IMG/VR virus record: IMGVR_UViG_3300034175_000063
Coordinates: 13,649-77,648 of that record
From: a virus
Reading direction: 5' to 3' (one strand)
DNA length: 64,000 nt
In this document: one piece after another, positions 3-42,156 of the stretch
How the letters are laid out: each line of letters opens with the position of its first letter
How positions within the stretch are numbered: position 1 is the stretch's first letter
Made by a program: the position numbers and the translations under genes
The notes under the pieces: model-generated
Databases searched by the model: none
The model's input: the letters and a program-made list of their open reading frames with translations, nothing else
What the model was told of the DNA's origin: nothing

Positions 3-2015
3 ATGGCTCTGGCTGGCGTAGCGGGCCAGGAGGAGCGTCGCAAGGAGCACGGCAGGTTCGTGCCCAACCCGGCCGTCCGGGCCGCCCTGAAGGCGTTTTT
101 CACGTCCTACAAGGGCCGTCTGATCTGGCATAGCGCCGGCTACGACGTCAAAGTGATCATTTACACCCTCTGGATGAATGGTCCGGACGATACGGCCGGT
201 CTGCTTGAGGGACTGGAAATCATGTACCGGTTGGAAGGTCATGGCATCGACGACACCAAGATCATCACCTACCTGGCCACAAACTCCACTGCGGGCAACA
301 CCCTGGGCCTGAAAGCCAATGCCCAAGAGTTCGCCGGCAACTGGGGCAAGGAAGACATCAAGGACATCAAGCTGATCCCGCTCCCCGAGCTGCTGCAGTA
401 CAACGGGGTGGACTGCTTGTCGACCAACTTCGTCCATGCCAAGTATTGGGGCCGCATGGTCGCTGACCAGCAGCTGGACCTGTATCACGACTTCATGCTG
501 CCGAGCCAGAAGGTGATCACCCAGATCGAGCTGACCGGCATGCCGATGAGCCGGGCCAAGATCGACGAGATCGAGGTCAAGCTGACCGCCATCGACACCG
601 CCTTCCAGGCGGTTGTACGCAAGCAGCCGATCGTCGCCAGGTTTGAAGCCTGGAAGACGGACCAGTTGTGGCAGAAGGACTACGAGGAACGCCGCGACAA
701 AGCCAAGAATCCTGACAAGATCCTGCCGAAGGACCGGGCCGCATTCCCGCAGCACGTTTTCAATCCGGGCTCGGGGCCGCAGCTGCAGATCCTGCTGTAC
801 GACATGCTCGGGCTGCCAGTGGTGGACACCACCGAGACTGGTCTGCCGTCCACCGGCGAAGATACCCTGACCAAGCTGCTCGATCACCCGATCGGTGTGG
901 CCAACAAGGCACTGATCGAAGCATTGATCGGTATCAGCCAGGTCAGCACCATCCTGTCCACGTTCGTGCCGGCATTCAAGCGGGCCATCGACCGTGACGG
1001 CAGCGGCATCGTCTGGCTCCACGGGAACTTCAACGTGGGTGGGACAGTCTCGGGCCGGCTCAGCTCATCCGATCCGAACCTGCAGAACATCCCAGCGAAG
1101 AGCATCTTCGCCAAGCTGATCAAGGAAGCCTTCATGGGTCCGGCCGGATGGGTCTTCGCCGGCGCCGACTTCAACTCGCTTGAGGACATGATCTCGGCCT
1201 TGACCACCAAGGATCCAAACAAGCTGAAGGTCTACACCGACGGCTTCGATGGACACTGCCTGCGCGCGGCGTACTACTACCGTGACCAGCTGATGCACAT
1301 CGACGTGAACGATCCAGTGTCGGTGAACAGCATCAAGAAGACGCACGAGGATCTGCGTCAGGAATCGAAGATCCCTACCTTCGCCCTGACGTACCAAGGC
1401 ACCTACCACACCCTGATGAAAAATCTGGGCTGGCCACAGGAGAAGGCTCAACGCATCGAGCTCAACTACCACCAGATGTATGTGGTGTCCGACCAGTATG
1501 TGCAAGGCAAGCTGAAGGATGCAACCGTCACCGGCTACGTTACCGTGGCCTTCGGCCTGCGTGTCCGGACGCCGCTGCTGGGCCAGACGATCTGGGGTGC
1601 AGCACGCACCCCATACCAGGCCGCGGCCGAAGGTCGCACTGCCGGCAACGCGCTCGGCCAGTCCTACTGCATGTTGACCAGCCGATCCATGATCGACTTC
1701 ATGCAGAAAGTCTGGAAGTCGCCGTACCGGCTCGACATCAAGCCATGCGCAATGATCCACGACGCCAACTATGTGCTGTTCCGGGAAGATCCGGTCATCG
1801 CAGAATGGGTGAACCGTGAGCTGATCATCAGCATGCAATGGCAGAAGCTGCCGGAGATCCAGCACCCGACCGTGAAGCTCGGCGCCGCGCTGGAGATCTT
1901 CTGGCCAAGCTGGGCAAACGCCATCACCTTGCCGAACGGTGCCACTGCCGACGAGATCGTGGCCGTGTGCGTCAAGGCCAAGCACGACTACCTCAATCCG
2001 AAACCGAAACCATAG
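3..2015 (+). CDS. DNA polymerase, family A (N4 gp39-like); probably 5'-truncated by the window edge
   Basis: Exonuclease motifs (YDVK, YNGVD), GTVSGRLSSSDPNLQNIP, motif A ADFNSLE, motif B RQESKIPTFALTYQG, motif C IHDA. Confidence 0.95.
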   Translation: MALAGVAGQEERRKEHGRFVPNPAVRAALKAFFTSYKGRLIWHSAGYDVKVIIYTLWMNGPDDTAGLLEGLEIMYRLEGHGIDDTKIITYLATNSTAGNTLGLKANAQEFAGNWGKEDIKDIKLIPLPELLQYNGVDCLSTNFVHAKYWGRMVADQQLDLYHDFMLPSQKVITQIELTGMPMSRAKIDEIEVKLTAIDTAFQAVVRKQPIVARFEAWKTDQLWQKDYEERRDKAKNPDKILPKDRAAFPQHVFNPGSGPQLQILLYDMLGLPVVDTTETGLPSTGEDTLTKLLDHPIGVANKALIEALIGISQVSTILSTFVPAFKRAIDRDGSGIVWLHGNFNVGGTVSGRLSSSDPNLQNIPAKSIFAKLIKEAFMGPAGWVFAGADFNSLEDMISALTTKDPNKLKVYTDGFDGHCLRAAYYYRDQLMHIDVNDPVSVNSIKKTHEDLRQESKIPTFALTYQGTYHTLMKNLGWPQEKAQRIELNYHQMYVVSDQYVQGKLKDATVTGYVTVAFGLRVRTPLLGQTIWGAARTPYQAAAEGRTAGNALGQSYCMLTSRSMIDFMQKVWKSPYRLDIKPCAMIHDANYVLFREDPVIAEWVNRELIISMQWQKLPEIQHPTVKLGAALEIFWPSWANAITLPNGATADEIVAVCVKAKHDYLNPKPKP

Positions 2016-2023
2016 GAGGCCAC

Positions 2024-2233
2024 ATGGCCAGTTACACAATGATCGTCACGTTCGACGCTAACAACGTCGACATGGCCCTGGCCGTGCAGTCCGAGATATA
2101 CAACGGCATGCAGGATGCAATCGACAGTGGCGAGATCGAAGGCGTGGAGTTCTTCACGACTGAAGAGCCCATGGTCAAGTGCAAGCGTCCCCCGGAAGGG
2201 GTTGATCCATTTCCACCAGAGGTGAAAGCATGA
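2024..2233 (+). CDS. hypothetical protein (69 aa, MASYTMIVTF...)
   Basis: AGGAGG SD before ATG 2024; stop overlaps next start. Confidence 0.7.
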   Translation: MASYTMIVTFDANNVDMALAVQSEIYNGMQDAIDSGEIEGVEFFTTEEPMVKCKRPPEGVDPFPPEVKA

Positions 2234-2481
2234 TTCAACTGAGTTTGGTCCCCGAAGAGGATCTCACCATCGACGGCCGCGCCGTCATCGAAGATCAGGA
2301 TGGCAACATGGTAGCCCTGGTTGAAGAGCGCAAGGATGCAGTCGAGATCGTGAACGCATGCCGCGTCTACGATTCCTGGCTGAAGACCATGCTGTGGATC
2401 CATAACAACCCCGGCGTACATCAGAACAATATTCGTACCCAGGTGGCGGCCGACCTGAAGGAAGCGGGCCTACTACCATGA
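2230..2481 (+). CDS. hypothetical protein
   Basis: ATGA-coupled to both neighbours, phage-like codon use. Confidence 0.7.
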   Translation: MIQLSLVPEEDLTIDGRAVIEDQDGNMVALVEERKDAVEIVNACRVYDSWLKTMLWIHNNPGVHQNNIRTQVAADLKEAGLLP

Positions 2482-2756
2482 AGACCTTCGCCACCAAAAT
2501 CAATGACATCCCTTGCACGGTTGTGGTCACGCATTACGCGCCGGCCATTCCGGACAAGGTGTCTGGTCCCATGGAAGACGCCGAGGAGGGTAGCGACGTC
2601 GAGTTCGAGTTTTATCTGCTCGACGATCGCAACATCCGCGCCCCCTGGCTTTACCGCCAGGTCACCGAAGCAGATTTCAATCGCATCCTGGATGAGTTTG
2701 AAATCACCCTGCTGGAAGAGAAGCACCTTTACGGAGCTGACGACCATGACCGATAA
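2478..2756 (+). CDS. hypothetical phage protein
   Basis: Coupled ORF; acidic small protein with FEFYLLDDR..RAPWL motif. Confidence 0.7.
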   Translation: MKTFATKINDIPCTVVVTHYAPAIPDKVSGPMEDAEEGSDVEFEFYLLDDRNIRAPWLYRQVTEADFNRILDEFEITLLEEKHLYGADDHDR

Positions 2757-2985
2757 AAACTGCACCATCTGCAACAAGCCGATCGTCCTCGTGCCGTCGG
2801 CAGCCGAACGTGCTGCCAAAGACCTGGCCGGCAAATCGGCCAGCTATTACACCAGCCTGTTCACCACCCACAGTGAATGTGCTGTAGCGCAGCGTAGTGA
2901 ACAAGCCCGCCAGCTCATGGTTTCAGGCCAACACAAGGCGGCCAACTACGTTCATCCACACCTCAATACCGACTCACTCGAATAG
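2746..2985 (+). CDS. small putative Zn-binding protein (CxxC...HxxC)
   Basis: GGAG SD before ATG 2746; MTDKNCTICNKPIVLVPSAAERA...TTHSEC. Confidence 0.65.
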   Translation: MTDKNCTICNKPIVLVPSAAERAAKDLAGKSASYYTSLFTTHSECAVAQRSEQARQLMVSGQHKAANYVHPHLNTDSLE

Positions 2986-2996
2986 AAGGAATCACC

Positions 2997-5465
2997 ATGC
3001 AAGTTGCACACCAACAGGACCACATCACCCACGCTGTTATCGGAGGCGCGGCAACCATCGACTTCGGTATCAGCAGCAGCGCCGAGTTCTTCAACATCCT
3101 GTCCAGCACGCTGTACAAGGACCAGATCCTCGCCGTGGTGCGTGAAGTCCTGTGCAACGCATGGGATGCCCACATCGAAGCCGGCATCATCGACCGTGCG
3201 GTCGAGATCACCCTGCTCGAAGACAAGTTCACCATCCGTGACTTCGGCACCGGTATTCACCGCAATGACATGGGCCAGATCTACGGCACCTATGGCAACA
3301 GCACGAAGAAGAACGACGGTCAGCAGACGGGCGGCTTCGGCCTCGGCTGCAAAGCACCGTTCGCCTACACCGACCACTTCGAGGTGATCTCCCACCACGA
3401 CGGCGTACGCACGATCTACAACCTGAGCAAGTCGTCGGCCGCCGCCCGCGGCAAGCCGGGCATCGTCCCGATCGCTTCGTTCCCAACGACGGAATCGGGC
3501 CTGCAGGTGTCGATCGACATCCACAACGCCACCGACTTCAAACGCTTCCAGCGTCTCGTGCGTCGTATCGCTCGCAATGGCGACATGAACATGAAGGTGA
3601 ACGGCGATCAGATCAGCAAGCTCGGCTTCGACACCGTTGAATCGAACTACCTGATCACGCTGGACCAGCAGCAAGAAATCATGGACGCCGATGGCCAACG
3701 TATCATGGTCCGCTACGGCAATGTGATCTACCCGGTTGACCGGGCCGGCTCCATTTCTCTTGGCTTCGACCAGGTGGTCGGTCACCTCGACAAGCTGAAG
3801 GTCGGCCACAGCCGTTCGTACTCGATCATCTTCCAGGCACCGCCGCACTCCATCTCGGTCACCCCGAGCCGGGAATCGCTGTCGATGCAAGAGCACACCG
3901 TTGCAACGCTGAACGGTTTGTTTGCTGGCTTCATGGAAGAGGTCAATGGTGGCTTCGTTCCGGCCTGTCACGCCTACGCGGAAATGGCAGTAAAGATGGC
4001 CGTGGCCCAAACCATGCGCAAAGATCTGCTGTCGCGCGAATGTAAGCTGCCGTACGTCATGGACAAAAGCACGCCGAACAAGATCAGTGATTTGGTGACC
4101 ATGGCACGTCGCTACATGGAGTCGAACTACCCAAGTGGTTTGGCCTTCCGCAAGAAGGACATCACCTGGCGCCTCGAAGGCATGGCCGCGTCTGGCCAGC
4201 TGGACCGTGGCATGGTGCAGACCTTCATGCGTGAGCTGGCCAACGTGACGACGACGAAGAACTGCGACGAGTGGGACTTCCCGAAAGAGCAGCGGACCAT
4301 GTGGCTGCAGCGGCACGTCATCGCCCCGATCATCAACAAGATGGGCAAGGCTGGCATCGACTACACCCGGCTGTACGTTCTCGACAAAGAGGACACGCGG
4401 GTGCCGGACAACTACTACTACAAGGACAAGGAGCCAATCGCTTTGGCCACTGACGCTCGGCCAATGCATTTGTTCAACACGCTGCCGTACATGCGCAAGA
4501 TCGTGGTGGTCAGCACCTCGGCGAAGGGTATCCATGATCGCGCCAAGCGGCATGATGTGCTCAAGACCCTGGGCACCGAGCATGGCTACCTGTTCTTCAA
4601 AGCCAGCATGAAAAAGAAGGAGCGTGAAACGGAGCTCGCCTTCTTCAAGGCACTCGGCATGGTCGTGGTCGACCTCACATTCCGTCAGGAGTGGGAAGCT
4701 TCACCATCGCGCTCGAGCGGTCCCCGCAAACCAGCAAGGAAAGGATTGCCGTCACTGAAAGCGATGAAGCTGAGCGATGGCTCGGTCGACACGCAGCAGG
4801 TTAAGCAGGACACCGTTCTGCGTATCGTTAATCCGGAATTCTCGGTGTGCGTGTCACTGCGCAAAGAGAACCCCTCCAGCATGCTGGGCCGGTTCGATGG
4901 CAAGTGCACGTCGCACATCATTGACTTATGGGGCGACAAAGGCGTCATCATCAACAACTCAACGTTGCATGAGAAGGCCATCAAGGCCGGCGCCATGGAG
5001 CTCGAAGCCTATGTGGAAAAGAAGGTCGTTGAAGTCATGCTCAACAGCCCACGGATCCTCGAATACTGGGCTTTTGATCGTCAACGTGCGTGTGACCACT
5101 TCACGGTTTATAGCGATGAGGCGGCCGAGATGATCAAGGTCGTCTACAACAGTGAGCTGCTGCGCAACCAGTTCCAGCTGGTGAACAACCTCACCGACGA
5201 CGAGAAGAAGATCATCCCGTTGTACCGTACGTTGCAGCAGCTGCAGCGTTATGGCCTGTCGGCCGAAATGAAGGCGGTTGAAAAACTGCTGGCCGACGTG
5301 CCGATTGATCCTCTCAACGGTGTGCTCATCGAGAAGTTCCGGCACCCTAATCCGCTGCTTGCGGTGTTTGATAAAAAAGCCCTTACCCGCATGCTGCGCA
5401 AGGCTAGTCCTACCAGCCCACAAATCATAAAGATGACCCAGATCCTGGCCATCGCCCTTAACTAA
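2997..5465 (+). CDS. rIIA: rIIA-like protein
   Basis: N-terminal GHKL-type ATPase motifs (REVLCNAWDAH, IRDFGTGI, STK...GGFGLGCKAPFAY); paired with rIIB. Confidence 0.9.
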   Translation: MQVAHQQDHITHAVIGGAATIDFGISSSAEFFNILSSTLYKDQILAVVREVLCNAWDAHIEAGIIDRAVEITLLEDKFTIRDFGTGIHRNDMGQIYGTYGNSTKKNDGQQTGGFGLGCKAPFAYTDHFEVISHHDGVRTIYNLSKSSAAARGKPGIVPIASFPTTESGLQVSIDIHNATDFKRFQRLVRRIARNGDMNMKVNGDQISKLGFDTVESNYLITLDQQQEIMDADGQRIMVRYGNVIYPVDRAGSISLGFDQVVGHLDKLKVGHSRSYSIIFQAPPHSISVTPSRESLSMQEHTVATLNGLFAGFMEEVNGGFVPACHAYAEMAVKMAVAQTMRKDLLSRECKLPYVMDKSTPNKISDLVTMARRYMESNYPSGLAFRKKDITWRLEGMAASGQLDRGMVQTFMRELANVTTTKNCDEWDFPKEQRTMWLQRHVIAPIINKMGKAGIDYTRLYVLDKEDTRVPDNYYYKDKEPIALATDARPMHLFNTLPYMRKIVVVSTSAKGIHDRAKRHDVLKTLGTEHGYLFFKASMKKKERETELAFFKALGMVVVDLTFRQEWEASPSRSSGPRKPARKGLPSLKAMKLSDGSVDTQQVKQDTVLRIVNPEFSVCVSLRKENPSSMLGRFDGKCTSHIIDLWGDKGVIINNSTLHEKAIKAGAMELEAYVEKKVVEVMLNSPRILEYWAFDRQRACDHFTVYSDEAAEMIKVVYNSELLRNQFQLVNNLTDDEKKIIPLYRTLQQLQRYGLSAEMKAVEKLLADVPIDPLNGVLIEKFRHPNPLLAVFDKKALTRMLRKASPTSPQIIKMTQILAIALN

Positions 5466-5474
5466 GGAAACCCC

Positions 5475-7997
5475 ATGAATCATAAAACAATCCGCGTCGT
5501 TGCCGCGGTAGTGGATACGCGCAACCTCACGCTGTACAAAGAGGACGGCACCACCGTCGTCATCGCTCAAGGTGATGTACGCCTGCGCAAGATCGTCGAA
5601 CAGGCAGCACCACAGCTGGTCCGCAATGGCTGGGCCGACGTCGACATCAGCCAGCCCGAAGAACCTTCCTATGCGGACTTTGAAAAGGAGGGCAGCGGTG
5701 CTGTGAAATTCTTTCGCATCGCCAAGTCGAAGTTGAAGCAGCTTTTTGCTGCTGAACCTGCTCCTGTCGACATGACGCCGGTGCCACCGTTGTCCATCGG
5801 TCCCGTGCCTGTGTCGGCTTCGCCGACGGCACTTCCCGATGTCCTGCCGGTGACCCCAGCTGCTCTTACCACGGCGGCTGCACACCTGGAAATCATGCAG
5901 GCCAACGCCGACATGATCAGCGATACGCTGGGCGTGGCCCGTCAGAACTGGGTCAATGTGGTGGCAGCCGTTGCTGCGGCGCCTGGTGCTGACATCACGC
6001 CGGCACCGGTGGTGACCTCCAGCCCGTTCCCAGGTGTTGGCCAGGATGGTGATCCACAGGTGGATGACGAGCCAGAAGAAGAGGTCATCCAGCATGAACC
6101 TTCCGAGCCGGCCGTCAAGCACACCATGAACGTCGTCAACGAAATCCTGAAGCACGCCGTCCCGGTGAGCTCGCCGGAATTCCACGAAGAGACGGTGGCC
6201 AAGCAGGGCAACGTGGTGGAAGAATCGGGTAGCACCGACAAAGGCCACGGCGACGACAGCAAGCCCGACACCATCATCGCAGTGGTGGATGGCAAGGTGA
6301 TCCCCGGTATGGAACGCATCAAGACGCAGTTCGGTCGTGCAGCGAAGCTGGGCAGCACTGCCGGCGTCGAAGCATTCCTGAAGCGCCTGGCGTCCACCAT
6401 CGAAGCCCGGTCGCACTCGGTTGAAGACCTGCTCAAGTTCCTAGAGCGGGCCGATCTGCCGATCGCCGACGACGGCAGCATCCTGATCTACAAGGTGCTA
6501 CGCAAGAACAGCACCACCGGCAAGTACGTGGACTGTCACACCCGCAAGGTGGAACAGTTCGTCGGCGCCTACGTATGCATGGATCCGTCGCTGGTCGACC
6601 ACAACCGCAACAACGAGTGCAGCAATGGACTCCACGTCGCGCGCCGTGGTTACATTCGCAGCTTCAGCGGCGATGTGTGCGTGTTGGCCAAGCTGGCACC
6701 GGAAGATGTCATCACAATTCCGGTCTACGACGCCAACAAGATGCGTGTCTGCGGCTACCACATCATCGCTGAGCTTTCCCAGGCCCAGTACCAGCGTCTG
6801 CGGGAGAACCTGCCGATCACCAACACCGAAGACGGGCAGAAGTTGCTCGCCCAGATGATGGCCGGCAATCACATCCGTCGCACACATGAAGTCCGTATCA
6901 CGGGCGGCATGGGTGAAGGCGTGAAGACCACGGAGATCCCGGAACGCAAGGTCACCATGGCCGACATTCCAGCCTCCCTGGTTTCGGCAGCCGCCGACGC
7001 TATCGAGATCTTCGGTGACGACGAGCTCGAGCACTTCGCAGCACAGCAACGCGCAAGCGAGGCCGTGCCGGCGCCGGTGTCCGATATCCAGAATCGCGTG
7101 TTCGCCATCGTGCACGAGCAACTGGGTGTGGAGCTGGACGACATTGAGCTCGACTCGAACTTGTCGAGCGATCTTGGTGCTGACTCGCTGGACGAAGTGG
7201 AACTGGTGATGTGCATTGAAGACGAATTCAATGTGGAGATCCCCGATGAAGCCGCTGAAAGCGTCAACACCGTGGGCGACATCATCACCTACATCGAAAA
7301 GCGTCTTGGTGTGGTGCCTGCTGCACCGGTACACACGCCGGTCAAGCCGGCCCCCGTGCTGGCAGTAGCATTGTCCAACCCGGATGGTCCGCAGTCCGAC
7401 ACCCCAACCGATCCATTGGACGTGGTGAAGACCGTGGCCAAGGTGACCGAAGAGGTACAGCTCTCCCGCAAGGAGCAGGCAAAGGCTCTGTACGACGCCT
7501 GGAACACCGCAGCTGACGCCGACAAGGCTGACCGCTACGCAGCCCTGCTGGCATTCAAAAAGGCCGCCAAGAAGGGCTGGGACGTGCTGGGGATCCCTGA
7601 TCCCACGGTGAAGGTAAAAGGGACCGTCAAGGTTGCCCTGGCGCCGAAGCCGAACACCACGCCAAAGCTGTTCCCTGCAGTCGAGGAAGTGAAGCCAAAG
7701 CCAGCTCACGCTGATGCTGTGGCCAAGCTCGATCGCAAGGTGGTGAAAGGCGACAAGAGCTTGCCAGTGGCGTCCAAGACCCCTCCGATGCCGAAGGTAC
7801 AGCCCCCGGCTGAAACCAGCAAGGAAGATGGGCCGCCGAAGATGCGTATCGCCAAGCTGCTGGCCATTGGCCTGGACAGTGCCGGCATCGCAGCATCCGT
7901 GCTGGCCATCAAGAAGTCAGCGAAGAAGAGCTGGGAGATCCTGGGTGTATCCGAAGCCCAGGTCGCCGAGATCTTGAAGCAGACCGGGAAGTCCTAA
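5475..7997 (+). CDS. rIIB: rIIB-like protein carrying an internal acyl carrier protein domain
   Basis: rIIB core ([51 protein letters not shown]); ACP-like insert at aa 536-611. Confidence 0.88.
   Translation: [840 protein letters not shown]
7080..7307 (+). other. acyl carrier protein (AcpP-like) domain inside rIIB; phosphopantetheine-site Ser at 7185-7187
   Basis: [17 protein letters not shown]...[46 protein letters not shown] is collinear with bacterial AcpP; the Ser is residue 36 of the domain. Confidence 0.92.
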
Positions 7998-8227: not shown

Positions 8228-8517
8228 TTTTTACCTCCAGCGAGCGCCGCGGTGCGGCATTCGTAGTATTGACCGGCTACCCGAGCCAGCATTGTGCTGG
8301 TCGTCCCAAACAGATCATCGGATAGGAGAGACAGTTCGGGGCACGCTGCCACCACTGTCGCGTCCGGCCCCACCTGCTTTGCCGGAGAGGGCATCGTTGA
8401 GCAACCGAAAAGCATCAGGATCATGCTTGCAATCCCGATACACAGGATTGTCTCGTACGATCGTTTCCACTTTTCCTTGAATGGTGGTATTGCGAACTTT
8501 AATTTTTGCAATTTCAC
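8224..8517 (-). CDS. o-spanin (Rz1-like lipoprotein)
   Basis: Overlaps i-spanin in another frame; lipobox LFGC; Pro-rich with CPEL and YYEC; AAGGAG SD before GTG 8517. Confidence 0.8.
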   Translation of the reverse strand: MKLQKLKFAIPPFKEKWKRSYETILCIGIASMILMLFGCSTMPSPAKQVGPDATVVAACPELSLLSDDLFGTTSTMLARVAGQYYECRTAALAGGKK

Positions 8518-8683
8518 TTGCGGCTCCTTGCCGTGCAATTTCACGAGTATCTTCGATAGCCTGTTTGATTTCGGCTGCTTTGGCCAATTGGCTGTCCTTA
8601 CCGACGCCGGTGCCGTACCAGTACGAACCGCCTATCGAAGCCACCCAGATAACAACTGCAGCTAACGCTGCCCACGGGTTCAT
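8315..8683 (-). CDS. i-spanin (Rz-like)
   Basis: Single N-terminal TM helix, helical periplasmic part, C-terminal Cys (PVYRDC); directly after endolysin. Confidence 0.82.
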   Translation of the reverse strand: MNPWAALAAVVIWVASIGGSYWYGTGVGKDSQLAKAAEIKQAIEDTREIARQGAASEIAKIKVRNTTIQGKVETIVRDNPVYRDCKHDPDAFRLLNDALSGKAGGAGRDSGGSVPRTVSPIR

Positions 8684-9198
8684 TGCGCCCCCATGCAGGT
8701 TTTGTAACGAGCCTGCTGGCGCTCCCATACGCCCCAGCATCGTTGATTGGGTCGACCGTTCACCAAGGTGGAACAGTCGTACCCGCCTGAGAACTTATAT
8801 GCCAACAGCGCCCCGCAAGCGCCTGCATAGTCGGCCCGCAGGAGCTTGGTCCGCATGGACGAGCCCGACCAGGCGCCCGTGCCGTATTGGTAGACCCAAT
8901 CCATGTAGGTGTCGTACTCGACCTGACTGAGCTGCACACCAGGCATCGAGTTGCGGAAGATGACTTCTTCCTTGGTGATGTGCACCTGGGCGACGCGCAG
9001 CGCGCGCACTGGGGTGACCTTCTGACCCATCTGGACCGGCTTGCCGTCTTCCCAGAAGGTAGAACCGTAGCCAACCGTTGGCCGGTCGTTCTTGGTGGGG
9101 ATCACAGCACTGTCGGTGAAGCCTTCATGCGACACCAGGCCGATAAAGGCCATGGCACTGAGCATGAGGCCGGCGACGGCCATACGTGGTTTACTCAT
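8680..9198 (-). CDS. SAR-type endolysin, GH24/T4-lysozyme family
   Basis: Weakly hydrophobic Ala/Gly-rich N-terminus, HEG...PTVGYGST, YQYGTGAW..SSM, CWGVWERQ. Confidence 0.88.
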   Translation of the reverse strand: MSKPRMAVAGLMLSAMAFIGLVSHEGFTDSAVIPTKNDRPTVGYGSTFWEDGKPVQMGQKVTPVRALRVAQVHITKEEVIFRNSMPGVQLSQVEYDTYMDWVYQYGTGAWSGSSMRTKLLRADYAGACGALLAYKFSGGYDCSTLVNGRPNQRCWGVWERQQARYKTCMGAQ

Positions 9199-9514
9199 CG
9201 ACAGTCTCCTCTTCAATAACTTCGACCAGCTTGACGCGCTTCTTGGCCGAAGAGCAGTAGCCCATGCTGGCCAACATCGGTCGGATCATTTTCTTCCACA
9301 GGTATTCGCTCAACGCCAGGAGCGACAGGACGAAAGCCAGGAAAGCAGCAGCATCGGTCCACGAGCTGATGCCAATGGCTGCCCAAACGAAGCCGATCTT
9401 GGCGCCCTGGCTGGCAACCACGTTGACGGTTGTTTCATTGAATTCGGTGCTCATAGGCTTCGCTTTAAATGTGGTGGATGACTGGTAACCGTATTTTACC
9501 TTGTTCGTAGGCAT
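9191..9514 (-). CDS. putative holin/pinholin
   Basis: Two hydrophobic segments, charged C-terminus, immediately upstream of endolysin; GGAG SD before ATG 9514, second ATG at 9454. Confidence 0.65.
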   Translation of the reverse strand: MPTNKVKYGYQSSTTFKAKPMSTEFNETTVNVVASQGAKIGFVWAAIGISSWTDAAAFLAFVLSLLALSEYLWKKMIRPMLASMGYCSSAKKRVKLVEVIEEETVDE

Positions 9515-9575
9515 TATTACTCCGAAGAATGAGTTGTTTAACGGAATTGTTGGATTCCGCACAGAAAGTACGCGA

Positions 9576-10031
9576 TTATGTCTCGTTGAACTGTTCGCTA
9601 ACAGACACAAGGCGCTTCACAACTTGATACAGCGCATTCGGTTCCATTCGCCACGGCTCATTGATGAGGAGCGCGGCAGCGATTGCTTCGGAGCAGAAAT
9701 ATTTATCGGCGCTATCAGATACGAACCCGATTGTTAGGTGGACATTACCCCACAGGTCGTACTTACTACCCTGGTGAACGACGAACCACTGTCGTGCAGC
9801 TGGTTCCCACTCAATTGGAAGCTCGATGAAGTCCCAATTGTCACCACCAAGTTCCATTTCTTTCCACCGAACGCCACCATCAGCAAACGACGATGAGGCA
9901 CACCAGCCCCCAGGAAAGCACAATTCCACATGGCTGTAAGGCCCACGGCCGCGGGATCGAACCAGGCGGTTATATACGCCGGCGACGCCGGGCCGTGTGC
10001 CCTTATAAAAGGCTATGCGAAAGGTATTCAT
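9576..10031 (-). CDS. permuted papain-like (YiiX/YaeF-type NlpC/P60) protein
   Basis: His motif YSHVEL precedes GSKYD and Cys motif YFCSE. Confidence 0.7.
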   Translation of the reverse strand: MNTFRIAFYKGTRPGVAGVYNRLVRSRGRGPYSHVELCFPGGWCASSSFADGGVRWKEMELGGDNWDFIELPIEWEPAARQWFVVHQGSKYDLWGNVHLTIGFVSDSADKYFCSEAIAAALLINEPWRMEPNALYQVVKRLVSVSEQFNET

Positions 10032-31707: not shown

Positions 31708-34700
31708 TTACTGCCCGTTGTACACCGCCGTGGTGAATGGTCCGGTCAGCAGGCCCACCGTGGTCACCGAATCCAACGAGCCGAAGTAGCTCAGCGCGCC
31801 GGCGTTAAACGGATTGCCGAAGTGGTGGATGAAGCTCGAGTCCATCACCGTCGGCTGGTCCCCCAACATGTGCTCGGCCGCCATCAAGGCGAGTACCCGG
31901 CCAGGCGAGTCCTTATAAATACGTGCAAGCACCTTCTGGATGCGAACATAGTATTTCGAGAACATGATCAACCCCGTGTCATTAGCGTACTGGATTTTCC
32001 GGTGCGTCGGGACGTCGTAGTTGATGAACGCTTCGGAAGCGCGCTGCACAGCTTGCTCATGGGTCATCGACTTGACGTCATGCTGGTACAGCGTGTACCG
32101 GGCCAGGAAGTCACTGATCTGCGTTGCGTAGCTCATCATCTTGTATGGCGCCGTGCTGTGGTGCATGGTGAGCAGCTGCACGCCTTTCAGGATGTGTGGG
32201 TTCACACCTTCGATGAAGCCGTCGACCTTTTCGTCGAACCGCGACTTGTACGAGTAGATGTCCTCATCGACGCCCACATCCTCAACGATGGTCGGCATCA
32301 GGCCGGCGTCGATCAGCGGACGGATCGGGTTGCGGGCCAGGCTGTCTTCCAAGCGTTGGATCAGGTAGGCGGCTTTGCTCGCATTCATGCCAGGTTCAAA
32401 GTGACCGATCGTCTGCTGGTGCTTCAAGGCGAACAGCTTGGCATTGTCCTGCTTGTATTCCCAGGCCGACTTGAACGCCACACGATGGCTGTCGAAGATC
32501 TGCTTCGGCGACACGCCCATCAAGAAAAGCTGCGACCAGTTCGACCGCAGGTTGCCCGTCATGGTCGACCACGATTTGACCACCAGGTTGGCCTTCGTCT
32601 CCTTGACGATCGCCTGCCAGATGTCTTCGGACTGGCGAGCACGCAGCTGGGCCTTGTCCTTGAAGGCATAGCTCATGATCTCGACGAACATGTTTTCGAC
32701 GAAGCTGCGCTGTGCCTTTTCCTTTTCAAACACCGTGCCGATGCTGAGCTTGCGATAGCCGAAGTTCATGTCGAGGATGTCGTTGCGGACCAGCATGCCA
32801 TCCTTGCCGAACAGGCTCTTGGCCAGCTGCTGGGTATCCCGCGGCAGCATGTCCCAGATTTCACGCAGCTGCGGATCAGCCGACGTCGGGCCGACCTGCA
32901 GATAGGCTTCCGGATGATCGGCAAAGTCCAGCTTGTACTGTTCGTGCAGAGCCTTGATGGCGTTGGCGTTCTGCACTTTCGACGCTACCTTGTCGAACGT
33001 GTTGCCGGCCATCGAGCCCAGCAGGTGATCGGTACGGTTGTCCCGGTTCAGCAGCTTGTCCTTGACGACGTTGCTCATCATGTAGCGGTAGTTGGTCACG
33101 TCACCGTTCGGGTTTAGCACTGGTGCCATGTGGGCTTCCTTGACCGCTGTTGGATCGAAGCCAGTACCAGTGAACATGCTTTGAATGGCCGGACGCTTAC
33201 CGATCCGGATCGCTGCCATGTTCATCGCGTTCTGCTGGCCAGCCACCGATACAGGGTGAGCACCGGTGATGACCTGGCTACCCTTGGCTTTGGAATCGGT
33301 CGTGCTGATGATGCCCGAGTTCCATTGTTTCAGGCCGCCGTCACGCAGCGAGTAGATCCGCTTTTGGTCAGATACCGGGTCCGCTGCGTCGCGCGGCAGG
33401 TAGCCGGGCATTGCCGTGTAACCTTTCTTGACCAGCTCGATACCCTCATCATCGGTGGCCATCACCACCGTCATGTAGGGATCGTAAATCTCCGGGACGT
33501 AGCCTTTCATCTGCAGGGCTTCACTGTCCGAGAACAACTTGTCCTTGCTCTCGGCCTGCAATGCCGTGTGGGTCTTCATGATCATCTCGATGCCATGGCC
33601 ACCGTCGGTGCGTGCTGCTTCAGCGGCAAACACCTCGGACAACATCTTCATGTCGACCCGGCTGGCGTACTTCAGCGCGTAGAGCGAAGCCAGACGATCA
33701 ATGATCGGGGCGGCAGCCAGAGCCTGGGCCGGCGTGACACTCATGCCCGTGCCATACAGGCGGGCGATGTTCCCGGCGTTCATCAGCTGGTGGGCCGTGG
33801 CCACGCGGCTGGTGGCCATGAAGTAGCCCAGCCCTTTCGCCGAGTTGATGTAGAACCGGTTCATCTTGCCACCGGCAACGAGCTGAGCTTCATGCGAGTC
33901 GATCTCCGTCTGCAGGTCACTCGTGCTGTTGACCAGGTTCTGCAGCTGGGCCACCGTGTAGGTGCCGAGCAGGGACTGCATGTCACCACGCAGGACCACC
34001 GCGGTGAGTGCTTTCTTCTGGTCGTCGGTCAGATCCTCACCTGCATTGACGAAGGATCCCGATACCGCTTTCGAGATGTTCGAGATGGTGTCCTTGCGGA
34101 TACCCTCCAAGTGCTTGGTGCCACGCAGCAGGAAGTGGTAGACCTTGTTCATGTCGGTTGCACCGCGTACTTCGTTCATCAGCGATGCTGCAACGCCGAG
34201 CTGGCCGGTCATCGTCTTGTCGCGCAAGCGAAGGTAGGCATCCATGATGGCGTCGACGCGATCGCCGGCAACCGCCGACATGACATTGCCACCCAGCTTC
34301 ACGAAGGCGTTACCGCTGTTCTGGAAGAAGGGCTTCTTGCCGAAGGCTTCCACCGCCGCGCGCACCGAGTCGCTCATGTCTTCGGCCGTGTCGGCGATGC
34401 GGTTCAGCGTCTGCGAGGCGCCGGACGTGATCCGGTTGTGACGCTTGGCTTCGATCTCGACCATCTGCTTGACCAGGGCGTTCAGCTTCTTGTCAGCCAT
34501 CTGGCCGCGGAAGGTCTTCGTCAGGCGGCCGGCCACCCAGCTCATGATCGTGTTGAAGATCTTGTTGAGCCGTTCGTTGAAACCCATGCTTGGATTGTTC
34601 GTGGCGCCGGTGGCAGTGTGAAACTGCAGTTGCTCGCGGAAGCCAGAATGCACCAGGCCCAGGGCGGCAAAGCGGCTCATGTAATCGGACTTGCCGGTGG

Positions 34701-37700
34701 CATCCTGCTTGATGGCGAAGACGAAATCGTAGAGTGCCTTGGCCTGATCCTTTTCGATCTGGGTGGCCGTGGTCCAGTCGCCCTTGTGGAAGGATTCGAC
34801 CGTCAGCTTGGCCCGGACCTCGTTGTAGAGGCGGGTCATTTCCTTGTAGGCGACCGTCATCACACCGTCGTTGTGCGACAGTGCAGTGCGCATCGTGGCT
34901 TCTACCTGCTCCAGGACGAAAGCTTCCTGATCGGTGAAACCGAAACCAGCAGCCAGAGACTCGGATGCGAACGGGGCCACGCCGGTGCTCAGTGCATCAG
35001 CGTAGACATCCAGCGGATCCTGTGCGGTCTGCTCCATGAGAGCGGCCTTGAAGGAACCGAAGGGACCATACACCGACTTCACCAGCGTTGACAACAGCCC
35101 TTGCAGGTGCGTGCTGTGTTCAGCCGAGATCTGGGCGCCGTTGTTCGACTGGGCCAGCGCAGCGTAGATGTCCAGGGTCGACAGGTCACGCACGTTTGCG
35201 GCGCCAGGCGTCGAGATGGCCAGGGTTACCGGGCCGGCTGCTGCCGGTTTGTTTTGCTGCGCTGCCTGCTCGAACAAGCCAGACACATTCGACAAGAACG
35301 TGGTCATACCGCTGCTCATTGCAGCGTTGGGACGACCGAAGAACAGAGCTGTAATCTTGTCGATAAATGCGGCCATTGCCGTGATCAGGCGGTTGCCACC
35401 GGTCTTCGACGTGTAGCTGATGGCGGCCATTACATCGTTCTGGAACTCAGCGTTGGTCATGCCGTAGGCAATGAACTCGTCCAGGTTCTCAAAGACACGG
35501 GAGTAATACGCGATGCGGTCTGGCGACTCGCTGCTGGCCACGTATTGCTTGGCCATTTCCATCAACGCTTCGAGCTCTTCGACCAGCTTCAGTGCATCAC
35601 TGGTATAGGGCTTGGCCGGCTTCTCTCCTTCGTTGTTAATGATCTCACCATCGCGGATCGCCTGCTCAGCGCGCGTCGTCTGCACCAATGCAGCGTGCAC
35701 CATCTCGTGCAGCAGTACCTCGTTGTCGAGGCCCGAGTACACAAAGTCGTCGGACATCACGTAGATGGCTTGGTTTTCAATGCCGTCAGCTACGTTTATA
35801 TACATGCCGCGGGCATTCTGGCTGATCTCGTGGTGGATCAGGTCAGCCGGTACGGTGTCCTTGGTGATGTATTTCACCACCATGTTGCCGGCGACAGTGC
35901 GCTCCAGCTGTGACAGCAGCTTCATGCTAAAGTCGTCCTTCATGGTCTTGCGCAGCAGGGCCACCACTTCCTTGACGGTTTGATTCGGCTTGGCCTTAAA
36001 TGCTGCGGTTAGCTTAGGATCATAACGGCCGAGAGGCTTGCCCAGTTGAGCAACTGGGTTGGCGTTCACCGGCTTGGTTTCCATCTCCGGGTCGGCTTTC
36101 GCTGCTCCCTTTTTCTCTTTGGCCGGGCGGCTGGCCATCTCAGCCTTGATCGCTGCTTCCAGCTTATCTGACACCGAGGTGAGGGCCGAGCGGTCGACGT
36201 CTGAAACACCGACCTCAAGCGCCGAGCGCAGCGAGGCCGCCGAGGAACGGTGGGAAGACTCGACAGCGAAGGCACCACCCTCCATCGCATATTGATTCAC
36301 CGCCGTCATGGTCGACATCGTGTCCAGCTTCATGCTGTCGGCACGATAGGCCATGCTCTGGGCCAGCTCAGCCTGCAGGTACAGCACGCCTTCAGGTGGG
36401 ACATCGTGCTTCTCAGCGAAGGTCACCAGCGACTTGGCCAGCTTGGCCATGGTCGCATCCGATACCTTGCCGGCCGCCAGCATAGCATTCAGTCCACGCA
36501 CCGTGCGCAGCAGAGCGTTCTTCACCTCGTTCGCCGGCGAGTAGTTCAGCATGGTGTCCCAGGTCGCTTCGTTCATGCGACGTGCTGTCTCAACGATGCC
36601 GCCGACACCGTGACCCTGTGCATCGTGGATGTTGAGGGCTTGGCCATCGACGTTCGCACGCACCGAGATAGCCGAGTCGGCCGAGTGCATCGACACTGGG
36701 ACCATGGCCACACCTGGGCCGGCTGGCGTTGTCTCATAGCCGTGCACCTGGGTGCTCTTGCTACCATCTTCAAATGGCTGGCCGAACTTCACCACATTCT
36801 GGTAGGTGTCCTTGTCCGAGAGCTTGCGCTCGGCTTTGGCCACCATGATGCCTGCCTCCAGGTCTTTCGATTCTTGGGACATCGGCGTGTTCATCACCGG
36901 CAGCAGGGCGGCCGTCTGCTTGCGCAGTTCAACTTCCTGAGCGTTGGTGAGATCGTGGATCGGCACACCGGTCTTCGGATTCACTGCCATCTTGCCGTCG
37001 GCGACCAGCTGCGTGATCATCTCTTCGCGCATGCCCTGGTACACAGCGTTGTAGACTTCAAACGTCAGCTGTGCTGTCTTGTTGAACTCGGTACGTTGGG
37101 CGATGAAGACCTCGAAGTCCTGCTTCATGGTTTCTTCCACGGCCACGCCGAGCGAGTCCTTGAAGGCGCCCTTGAGTGTCTTGATCTGCTGGCTGGTGAA
37201 CTCGTGTTCCATCAGGTCGATGTTGGTCGGCAGCCGCACACCCATCACCTCCAGGTGCAGCAGGATTTCGCCTGGTGTCATCTCGCCTTCTTCAATCGCC
37301 GTGTAGATCGAGTCGACGAAGTTGTCGGCCATCGAGTCCACTGCGTTGTTCACCGACGAACCGAAGACCATCGCGGTCAGCGGGGTCTTGATGATGTTCC
37401 GGCCTGCCTTTTGCACGACGCCTTTGCTGTCGGCCAGCTCGCCAGTGAAGGCGTAGATCGAAGCCATGAGCTCAGGATCCAGGTTGGCAGCATTGATCGC
37501 CTGCGTCATGTGCAGGGCCGTGTTCTCGTACAGATCGAAGTTCTCCGGCGCGTCGCGCCAGGTGTTGTATTCGATATGGTCGTTGCCTTGCTCGAAGAAG
37601 CCACCGCGGTTCAGTAGGGCGTACATCTCCTTGACCGTGTTGGCCGCGCCCAGCAGCAGATGCGACAGCATCGGGCCGTTGGTCACACCGTCCACCTCGG

Positions 37701-40700
37701 CCATCATCTGCGTGGTGAACTCGGTGGCGCCGGCCTTCTTGGCCACTGTCATCTGGGCCATGGCCATCAGCGCATCAAGCGAGTGCATGTCCTCACCACC
37801 AGCCTTCACGCCGGCCACCAGCACTGCCTGATCGTTCTCGGACAGCACACCGCTTTCGGTGCCGGTCAGCGACTTAACGAGCACGGCCACGGCTGCTTTG
37901 ATCTCTGGCTTGGCGACCAGCTTGTTGAAGTCGGCGAGGGCTTTTTCCTTGCTCTTCTTGTCGGTCTTGACGCCCAGTCCTTCTGCAACGCGCAGCTTGA
38001 AATTCGTCATGGCTGCGGTATCGCCGAAGGCAATCTTCGTTTCCCAGGCCGAACGGTACAGCATGTGACGGTGGATCTTGCTGGTCTGTGGATTGATCAT
38101 GTTCGTGGCGATACCGACACGCTGCTGCATCCAGACAGAGTGTTCAAAGTACATGGCCGCGTCACTACCGACTTCACCGACGTAGTTCATGAACCGCTCG
38201 AGCTCGCGTGCCAGGCCATCATTCTTGGCCTGCAGGGACTTGCGGCGGCTCTTGTGCACGACCTTGTTCGGGTCTTCCTGACCTGCGATCTGCAGCATGG
38301 TGTCCGGGGACACCTGGCCGGCCAGGTTGAACATGTCGGCCCGGACATAGCTCGCCTCGGCGTCATCACGACGCACCTGCTCAGCCAGCTCCGAAGGGAT
38401 GGCCATGCTGGTGTTGCGGGTGGTCTTCTGCTTCGATTCCACCGGTGACGACGACGGCGCCTTCAGTGCCGGCTCCACGCCGAACAGCTTGTCGAGGATC
38501 CCGTTCGTTCCCTTGTTGGCTTGGAAAATCGCTTCGGCCTGCTCACCGAGTTTGCCATCGGCACGGGCCAGCTTCAGGAAGTAGAACTTCGCATTGGTCT
38601 GGGTTTTGTCGCTCTTCGTCAGTTCAGCCATTTCCTGGCCGGTGATCGTGTTGCGGGTCAGGATACCCTGGTCCAGCAGCAGCTTCATGGCATGGGCACC
38701 GATCGACGCTTCCAGATCGGCCTGCAGGTTACGCGGAGCGGAAGCCAAGGATTTAAGACCAAGGGCCGCAACAATCCGCTGGCCGAGTGCATTGGCCACG
38801 ATGTTCTGACGTACGCCGATGTGCTCCAGTGCGTTGTATTCAAGCGTCGACACCGGTGCAGATTCATCCCGACCGAGGATGGCATTGATGTCTTCCTTGG
38901 TGTTGAGCTCCGGACGTGTGGCCGCTTCAGCGACCCAGCTAAATGCACCGTAGGCGATTGCCGTCATGGTGTTCTCATCGAGCTTGCCGTCGGCGTTCAT
39001 CAGGAACTGGATCGGGTCTTCAAAACCGTAGCCGGGATTGCCCTTCCGCAGGTTGGCCGTGATGTTACCGGCCCATGCCGTGGCCGTGGCCAGGAAGGTT
39101 TTCAGTACCAGCTTTTGCTCATCGCTTGGGGCTTCCTTCGACGACAGGAATTCCGACAGCTTGAAGCCTTCGGCCTTGTTCTTCCATGCCGAGAGGAAGT
39201 CGACCAGCTTAGCCAGCGGACGCTGGGTGCCGGTGTCTTCATTGCCGGCCGACTGGACGAAGTGTGCCCCGACCAGGTTCTGTTCCTGGTATGGCAGCGA
39301 GGTGTCATGTGCGACGTCGAAGACGGTGAGCGTGGTGGTCTTTTCCTTGACCTCCTGGGTCGCCGCAGCTTCAGGCGTGGCCGTCTCTGCAGCGGGCGCT
39401 GGGTTCGCTTCGCTCACCGCTGGCTGCTCGACTGCTGCCGCCTTCGCTGCTGCTTCCCGTGCCTCACGTTGGGCTTTGGATTTGGCCAGGTTGTCAGCGA
39501 CACGCTGGTCCTTGTCGTTGCCGGCCAGGACGTTTTTCTTCGGCTCGGCCGATGCCTCATTATTTGCATCTGGTGCAGATTTCTTGCGTGACTCGATCAC
39601 GTAGCCCGACTTGTCGGCTTTGCGTGTGGCCTTCAGGCTCTCACCCAGGAAGTTGTCGTATAGATACTTCTCCGCTTCCAGCGACGTGGCGAATTCCTTG
39701 CCGACGTGGACGACTTTTTCTTTCTTCTCAGACTTAGGGGGAGCTTCAGCGGTGGGGAGTTCAGCTGGTACAGCTGGACGTGCGGTGTCCTCCTCAATTT
39801 CTGGGGTACTGATATTACCGGAGGGTACATTGTCTTGCTTGGAGGATTCGGATTGTACGCCAAATTTCAAAGATGTGGCGGAATTCATTTCGGTATGGGT
39901 GGCACGCAACGCTTTCGCCTCGTTGGCGATCTCGTTGACCAGGCGCCCGGAGTTCAGGGCCAGGCCGCCGTTGGCACGGAGATCCTTTTCCTTGAAGGTG
40001 CCAGGCGGGTGGGATTCCCATTTCTTGTCCGTCTTGTTGTAGACGATCTGGGCGCCCATACCGTAGTCGGCCATGGCCTCGCGGGCGGTGGCTGCCTTGT
40101 CTTCGTGGTTGATGGCGAACGTCTCCAGCCCGGTCATGGCACGGTCGGCCGACACCTGGCTGTTCGAGGCGATCGCTGCTGCGATGCGCGAGCGGTATTG
40201 CGAGATGCCGACGTTCTTGGCAGAGCCAAACAACACCTCTTGCGACACCTTCGACTGGGTAGACAGGGCGTTCTCGGCCTGACGAGCATCGCTGAACACG
40301 CGAAGATGCGCACGCTGCGAATCCGTCAGCGAGTTGGTGGTGTCATCAGCCAGCTGCAACGCTGCTGTGTGGGACAGAGCATCCGGCTGCGACATCGACA
40401 GGTTCACCAGTCGGGTAGCAGCGGTGTTGTCGGCCGCTGCTGCGGTGACCAGCGTGCCTACTTCTTCCGGCGTGGCCACTGCCTCATTGGCGTTGACCAG
40501 TCCACCCATGAAGTTGCGGCCGGCTGAGAGCTGGCGATCCAGAGCGGACAGCACAGCACGCGACTTGCTCGCTGCCTGGGTGTCGGTGGCGTCAGCCAGC
40601 ACATCCTTCCAGCCGTCGCGGAAGTCCTGCAGTTCGGCGATCTTGACCGCATCGGTAGTCTTGGCGATCTCCGTCTCGTAGAAGCTGACCTTGGCTTTCG

Positions 40701-42078: not shown

Positions 42079-42156
42079 GGTATTCCTGGTTGATTCGGGT
42101 GAGAGCCCATTATATACAAGTTGCACTGGGTCAAGTAGTCTTGACCCAGATTTACT

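Follow-up and report, generated by a model that had tools for sequence, protein, structure and literature searches.

The rIIA and rIIB genes are among the oldest genes in molecular genetics. How RIIA and RIIB act against RexAB is still unclear (bioRxiv 10.1101/2023.05.28.542683), and RIIB is toxic by itself and sets off a gasdermin defence in bacteria (bioRxiv 10.1101/2023.05.28.542683; PMC13716836). Acyl carrier proteins (ACPs) are also known from phages as separate genes that lie far from rII; in PhiSH19, for example, RIIB is located at 2.8 kb and the ACP at 80 kb (PMC3220722). Here we describe an rIIB gene that contains a whole ACP domain in frame. It lies in a window of 64,000 nt (hereafter the window, whose positions are used throughout) that corresponds to bases 13649–77648 of the virus record IMGVR_UViG_3300034175_000063. 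The source record is 77,648 bp long, has direct terminal repeats and is rated 100% complete. The phage is N4-type (Schitoviridae-like), as indicated by a giant virion RNA polymerase and a ∼70–80 kb genome with terminal repeats. The open reading frame (ORF) in question and its parts, in amino acids (aa), are as follows.

5475..7997, + strand: rIIB ORF with the insertion, 840 aa (phrog_2886, E 3.1e-154, aa 1–837 against a 552-position profile).
6117..6929, + strand: conserved rIIB core, aa 215–485 (alignments; AlphaFold2 (AF2) model with a predicted local distance difference test score (pLDDT) of 82 and a predicted template modelling score (pTM) of 0.79).
6930..7061, + strand: native variable linker before the insertion, aa 486–529 (homologous in relatives P0002, P0003 and L165; DNA strongly diverged).
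7062..7340, + strand: inserted block of 279 nt (93 aa), i.e. AVPAPV, the ACP domain and 11 further residues, then possibly V (pairwise alignment with the rIIB of L165).
7080..7307, + strand: AcpP-type acyl carrier protein domain with four helices, aa 536–611 (PF00550, TIGR00517 and NF002148 above cut-off).
7185..7187, + strand: S571 codon TCG, which is Ser36 of the ACP domain in a DSL motif, the canonical 4'-phosphopantetheine attachment site (invariant alignment column).
7341..7994, + strand: C-terminal rIIB tail, conserved in N4-type relatives (alignment).

The original prediction, made from the sequence alone, placed a full ACP domain at aa 536–611 of an rIIB protein, in frame, with no stop on either side and with Ala/Pro linkers around it. 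All of these points are borne out. The ORF is identified as rIIB by phrog_2886, with a further match to phrog_609 (E 1e-31), and both PF26926 and PF00550 are precomputed on the protein. The domain passes the cut-offs of (i) the Pfam PP-binding family PF00550 (E 1.3e-13, 51.4 bits against a cut-off of 20.8), (ii) the NCBIfam AcpP equivalog TIGR00517 acyl_carrier (88.7 bits, cut-off 70.45) and (iii) NCBIfam NF002148 (95.5 bits, cut-off 71). These E-values rule out a chance match. The insert region also has a weak match to the ACP region of PfaA (TIGR02813). The phmmer alignments of the domain with solved ACPs among PDB sequences are free of gaps; in that with E. coli AcpP, query 2–73 pairs with chain 2–73, and the two share 51–53% identity in structure alignments. 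The DSL serine falls at domain position 36, as predicted, within the local sequence DLGADSLD, where it opens helix II; position 39 is indeed Glu, in a column that is variable among ACPs. In an alignment with the 30 nearest free-standing ACPs, the domain retains 16 of 16 invariant and 9 of 9 nearly invariant columns, which makes its recognition by a host AcpS plausible.

The AF2 model of the linker–ACP–linker segment has four helices with a domain pLDDT of 86–91, while the linkers are disordered (pLDDT below 50–61). Foldseek superposes the modelled domain on type II ACPs with template modelling (TM) scores of 0.89–0.96 and root mean square deviations of 0.5–1.0 Å, and its structural matches include ACPs solved with AcpS, FabD, FabH, FabZ, LpxD and MukB (TM about 0.9). 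The insert starts at AcpP residue 2 and extends almost to the C-terminal end, and so amounts to a whole AcpP. A typical AcpP is a free-standing protein of ∼80 aa that serves fatty-acid synthase; this domain is embedded in an 840-aa rIIB.

Because the source is a metagenome and short-read assemblies can be chimeric, an assembly chimera or frameshift artefact that joined bacterial acpP reads to a phage contig has to be considered, but its probability is close to negligible. A Logan contig of 4,868 nt (depth 18), built with another assembler from a biocrust metagenome that is the likely source sample, covers positions 6500–7900 at uniform depth with 0 differences, so that both junctions are spanned independently. 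Both are in frame within one 840-aa ORF, the genome is closed with terminal repeats, and no bacterial acpP exceeds 64% identity to the domain. The base composition also fits the phage: GC content at third codon positions (GC3) is 0.71 in the ACP region against 0.745 in the gene, and the codon-usage fit lies 0.35 standard deviations from the mean of 76-codon windows of rIIA/rIIB. A GC dip at 7100–7299 was considered as a sign of foreign DNA and rejected, as it is confined to codon position 2 (0.25) and reflects acidic composition. An identical 146-nt piece of the ACP region is present in a second biocrust sample; a further run (X3) yielded only a 151-nt piece upstream of the insert (6821–6971), which is uninformative on the ACP.

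We then compared rIIB among related phages. In the list of the best 120 rIIB homologues among 5.8 billion proteins, which includes the protein of the window, PF00550 is found on that protein only, and the closest homologues, P0002 (73% identity) and P0003, have an alignment gap exactly over the ACP. A custom hidden Markov model (HMM) finds the ACP in none of 31 N4-type rIIB loci from IMG/VR. The search for the same insert in rIIB homologues that the original prediction had called for is therefore negative for the other 119 listed homologues and the 31 IMG/VR loci, and positive for T4-type proteins (see below). A metagenome scan with a junction-spanning query returned no second N4-type fusion, although the pattern method is insensitive and this is a weak negative. 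The closest IMG/VR relative, L165 (IMGVR_UViG_3300035156_000138, 1501–3762), has a 77.7-kb genome and an ACP-less rIIB of 753 aa with 75% identity. Alignment with L165 places the insertion between ...QQRASE and KPAPVL..., accurate to within a few residues, in a disordered Ala/Pro-rich linker between the rIIB core and the C-terminal tail. In run X2, a related contig has 108 nt in place of the 387 nt at 6974–7360, a net difference of 279 nt. Taken together, these comparisons of sequences indicate that the ACP insertion is a gain in this N4-type lineage.

Loose-end sequences in runs X1 and X2 match L165, which implies that at least two biocrust samples contain an ACP-less L165-type phage alongside the ACP-bearing one. 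Their GC contents differ (48% in L165 versus 57% in the ACP-bearing phage), and they are thus distinct lineages rather than strains of one. They form a natural plus/minus pair in biocrust. Part of the linker before the insert (6974–7061) is homologous to L165 at the protein level and yet is the most DNA-diverged part of the gene; in L165, AT content is higher in the same linker than anywhere else in the gene (GC 0.39, GC3 0.27). This segment could be a hot spot for recombination or a patch under relaxed constraint.

The pairing of rIIB and ACP is not restricted to the window. A region search found P0249, a T4-type rIIB of 471 aa with PF26926 and PF00550, in which the ACP directly follows the core. 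When P0249 was used as the query of an exhaustive phmmer search, 2,090 representatives matched at E < 1e-30, and custom ACP and core HMMs identified 11 more fused representatives in the top 150. There are thus at least 12 T4-type rIIB–ACP cluster representatives, always with the ACP C-terminal to the core; as the top 150 are ranked by an ACP-containing query, they yield no frequency. The statement that no such fusion had been described therefore holds for the literature searched, where we found no description of one, whereas the fusion itself also exists outside this phage. A tree of 157 rIIB cores needs 12 changes to account for the 13 fusions (12 T4-type plus the window), at least four of which are forced by strongly supported branches, and the fusions are no more clustered than shuffled labels. 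The ACP of the window has a branch of 0.23 on the ACP tree, compared to 0.8–8.7 for the T4-type fusion ACPs, and matches free-standing ACPs more closely (93 bits) than those of any fusion (≤75.5 bits). The N4-type insertion is thus an independent event. Another ACP fusion that is not rIIB and is likewise unexplained was seen in P0241 (627 aa, on a 7.6-kb ENA contig), which has two tandem near-identical AcpP-type ACPs (aa 3–73 and 88–156) and a C-terminal PF27347 domain with Gly-rich hydrophobic stretches.

Relying on these findings, we tentatively favour, as somewhat short of probable, the reading that the domain serves as a tethered look-alike of AcpP, by which rII docks onto ACP-client proteins of the host. 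In this mechanism, (i) an N4-type lineage gained a whole AcpP-type ACP in frame within the disordered rIIB linker; (ii) the domain, intact and presumably under constraint, would ride on a flexible arm; (iii) the acidic helix II would be the contact through which the rIIA/rIIB complex docks onto host proteins that normally bind AcpP, candidate partners being AcpS, the inner-membrane enzymes of the Fab, Pls and Lpx sets, and further AcpP clients; and (iv) docking would link rII action to, or place it within, the acyl-ACP and envelope-lipid network of the host, or else titrate an AcpP-dependent factor. Since the serine is kept in the window phage, host AcpS would probably convert the domain to its holo form. 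Host modification, docking and an effect on defence or lysis are what we infer for this protein.

Several observations weigh against docking. The domain is known in one genome of this N4 type, so that purifying selection within the lineage is not measurable; no sampled relative has the ACP, not even one that is present in the same samples; and the linker that received it is freely length-variable among relatives, so that a passenger domain would be tolerable. The fusion list, ranked by an ACP-containing query, may exaggerate the scatter on the tree, and no rIIB was found near free-standing ACP genes in 95 viral loci. In addition, the serine-less cases discussed next are all T4-type and degenerate, and may not represent the intact domain of the window. 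Predicting a complex between the rIIB core and the ACP domain gave a score of 0.00, which is evidence neither way.

The state of the serine bears on a different possibility, namely that the domain is a true carrier: host AcpS would make the holo form and host enzymes would load an acyl or other group. The flexible arm could then present this group to rIIA or the rIIB core in a reaction of unknown nature, or the group could serve in membrane association or lipid sensing. We regard this as somewhat unlikely. Ser36 and the entire AcpS/Fab recognition surface are intact, the Ala/Pro arms resemble those of swinging-arm carrier domains, and the rIIB core has six residues that are invariant across N4-type and T4-type rIIB (K340, D353, C382, H387, Y393 and R424), among which the Cys, His, Asp and Lys could be catalytic. 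The serine is kept in 10 of the 13 fusion ACPs. However, the other three have Ala (P0252), Asp (P0278) or Glu (P0347) instead, while their acidic helix II pattern is retained. Since the serine is missing from some independent rIIB–ACP fusions, what the fusions essentially have in common is probably not the prosthetic group; a common function as carrier or lipid anchor would then be excluded, which favours the second option of the original prediction, docking or a decoy. Type II ACPs also bury the acyl chain inside the helix bundle, which would make the domain a poor membrane anchor. Furthermore, the rIIB core has no recognizable acyl-transfer fold: no PDB fold was matched at a Foldseek E ≤ 0.001, and a wide VIA-align search peaked at Z 3.9. 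The genome itself contains no phosphopantetheinyl transferase (PPTase), second ACP, AMP-binding enzyme, acyltransferase, malonyl transacylase, ketosynthase or AcpH, and no fatty-acid synthesis genes. In the absence of a PPTase or acyl-loading enzyme from the phage, any modification of the ACP must be host-derived.

A second possibility is suggested by the insertion site, where related proteins have linkers of very different length and sequence. Among those sampled, the insert is present in one N4-type genome only, and insert-free relatives co-occur in the same samples. A fragment of a captured ACP gene could therefore sit in an insertion-tolerant disordered linker as a neutral or nearly neutral passenger with no role in rII. 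We consider this unlikely, for three reasons: (i) the domain is complete and in frame, retains all conserved ACP columns and has a short branch on the ACP tree; (ii) its codon usage is fully ameliorated, so that it cannot be very recent, and still no decay is visible; and (iii) the same pairing recurs across rIIB lineages, which would be unlikely if insertion were random. Docking through an AcpP look-alike thus remains the reading that we prefer, tentatively.

Repeated independent fusion to an ACP might also say something about rIIB in general. If rIIB acts through host acyl carrier protein, then unfused rIIB, including that of T4, would bind or modify host AcpP or an inner-membrane AcpP-client complex. 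Through this molecular handle, sought for a long time, rII would overcome Rex-type abortive infection and set off RIIB-sensing defences. In our judgement, this generalization is rather doubtful.

The origin of the domain was sought among free-standing ACPs. The nearest of them in the 5.8 billion proteins have ≤64% identity and come from scattered taxa. As no protein exceeds this value, no donor can be named, and the suggestion in the original prediction that the domain was captured from the host is left unsupported. Its other suggestion, of a start (SDI) resembling betaproteobacterial AcpP, does not hold: the best named AcpPs in GTDB genomes are from alphaproteobacterial Hyphomicrobiales (Methylobacterium, Microvirga and Beijerinckiaceae), with 59–62% identity and the start MSDIAERVKK.... 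This gives a weak hint that the phage host may be a Hyphomicrobiales bacterium. The genera with the nearest AcpPs are typical of biocrusts, and Microvirga includes the soil-crust isolate BSC39. One free-standing ACP (P0125, 92 aa) shares the unusual DEVEL.MCIEDEF and TYIE.KL of the insert and groups with it (support 95/84); it was rejected as a donor, having only 56% identity and being absent from IMG/VR.

Two further regions of the rIIB protein have features of their own. The weak fold matches of the core are mostly to proteins of the ADP-ribosyltransferase (ART) fold (Arr, Scabin, PARP10/13/15 and Rhs ART toxins), with Z 2.3–3.8 and Foldseek E above 0.5, and are too weak for use. A basic motif, KK.AKK.W..LG (segments of 17 and 19 residues), occurs twice in the C-terminal tail, at 7530–7590 and 7905–7970 (rIIB aa ∼690–711 and ∼811–832), and is conserved throughout the N4-type relatives. 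Before the second copy lies a conserved helix of borderline hydrophobicity (aa 792–813, 7848–7913), with a Kyte–Doolittle maximum of 1.69 over 19 residues.

The neighbourhood of rIIB and the genes that place the phage are as follows.

3–2012: DNA polymerase.
2997..5465, + strand: rIIA, 822 aa, with an N-terminal GHKL/HATPase domain (phrog_2979, E 1.9e-172).
8315–9610, − strand: lysis cassette, convergent to rIIB (spanin, endolysin and holin).
31711–42126, − strand: virion RNA polymerase, 3,472 aa (phrog_2206, 2,029 bits).

The rIIB ORF lies directly downstream of the GHKL-ATPase rIIA, whose stop is 9 nt upstream of it and whose HATPase_c_3 domain (PF13589) matches at aa 47–154 (E 3.8e-9). The lysis genes begin ∼320 nt past the rIIB stop codon and comprise an Rz-like spanin (8318–8740), an endolysin (8683–9216) and a holin (9194–9610).

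Both protein families are thus known; their combination is new to the literature searched, and the window holds the first N4-type case found, with an origin of its own. An independently recurring domain fusion is classic evidence of functional partnership, and the recurrent pairing offers a lead to how the long-mysterious rII proteins work. To the T4-type fusions the window adds a separate origin in another phage family, an unusually pristine domain with mapped boundaries, and an ACP-less relative in the same soil crusts. These three properties make testable the hypothesis that rII works through the host acyl-ACP network.

Compared with T4 RIIB (PF26926 Phage_T4_rIIB; PHROG 609/2886), the protein of the window shares a homologous core, the C-S-x-G-L-H motif and a position downstream of a GHKL-ATPase rIIA, but it has 840 aa, against roughly 250–400 aa in T4-type homologues, and differs in its long Ala/Pro linkers, N4-type tail and embedded ACP. 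The domain resembles bacterial AcpP (TIGR00517; PF00550) in its full length, DSL Ser36, acidic helix II and four-helix fold; AcpP, however, is free-standing and encoded in a fab operon, whereas this domain is part of a phage protein. Free-standing phage ACPs (Vi01-like, phiRSL1, P-HM2, BCSR5 and others) are also AcpP-like, with 42–53% identity to the domain, but are separate genes. Swinging-arm carriers, such as E2 lipoyl domains and the tandem ACPs of the polyunsaturated fatty acid synthase PfaA, likewise set a small carrier domain between flexible Ala/Pro-rich linkers; as the rIIB of the window has no recognizable catalytic partner domains, this similarity is architectural only. The closest parallels are the T4-type rIIB–ACP fusions (e.g. 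P0249, P0274 and P0303), in which an rIIB core is likewise followed by an ACP. They belong to another rIIB clade (21–29% core identity), and their ACPs are long-branched, lack the serine in three cases and are not the nearest relatives of the ACP described here, which is internal to rIIB, whereas the ACP is terminal in P0274 and P0303.

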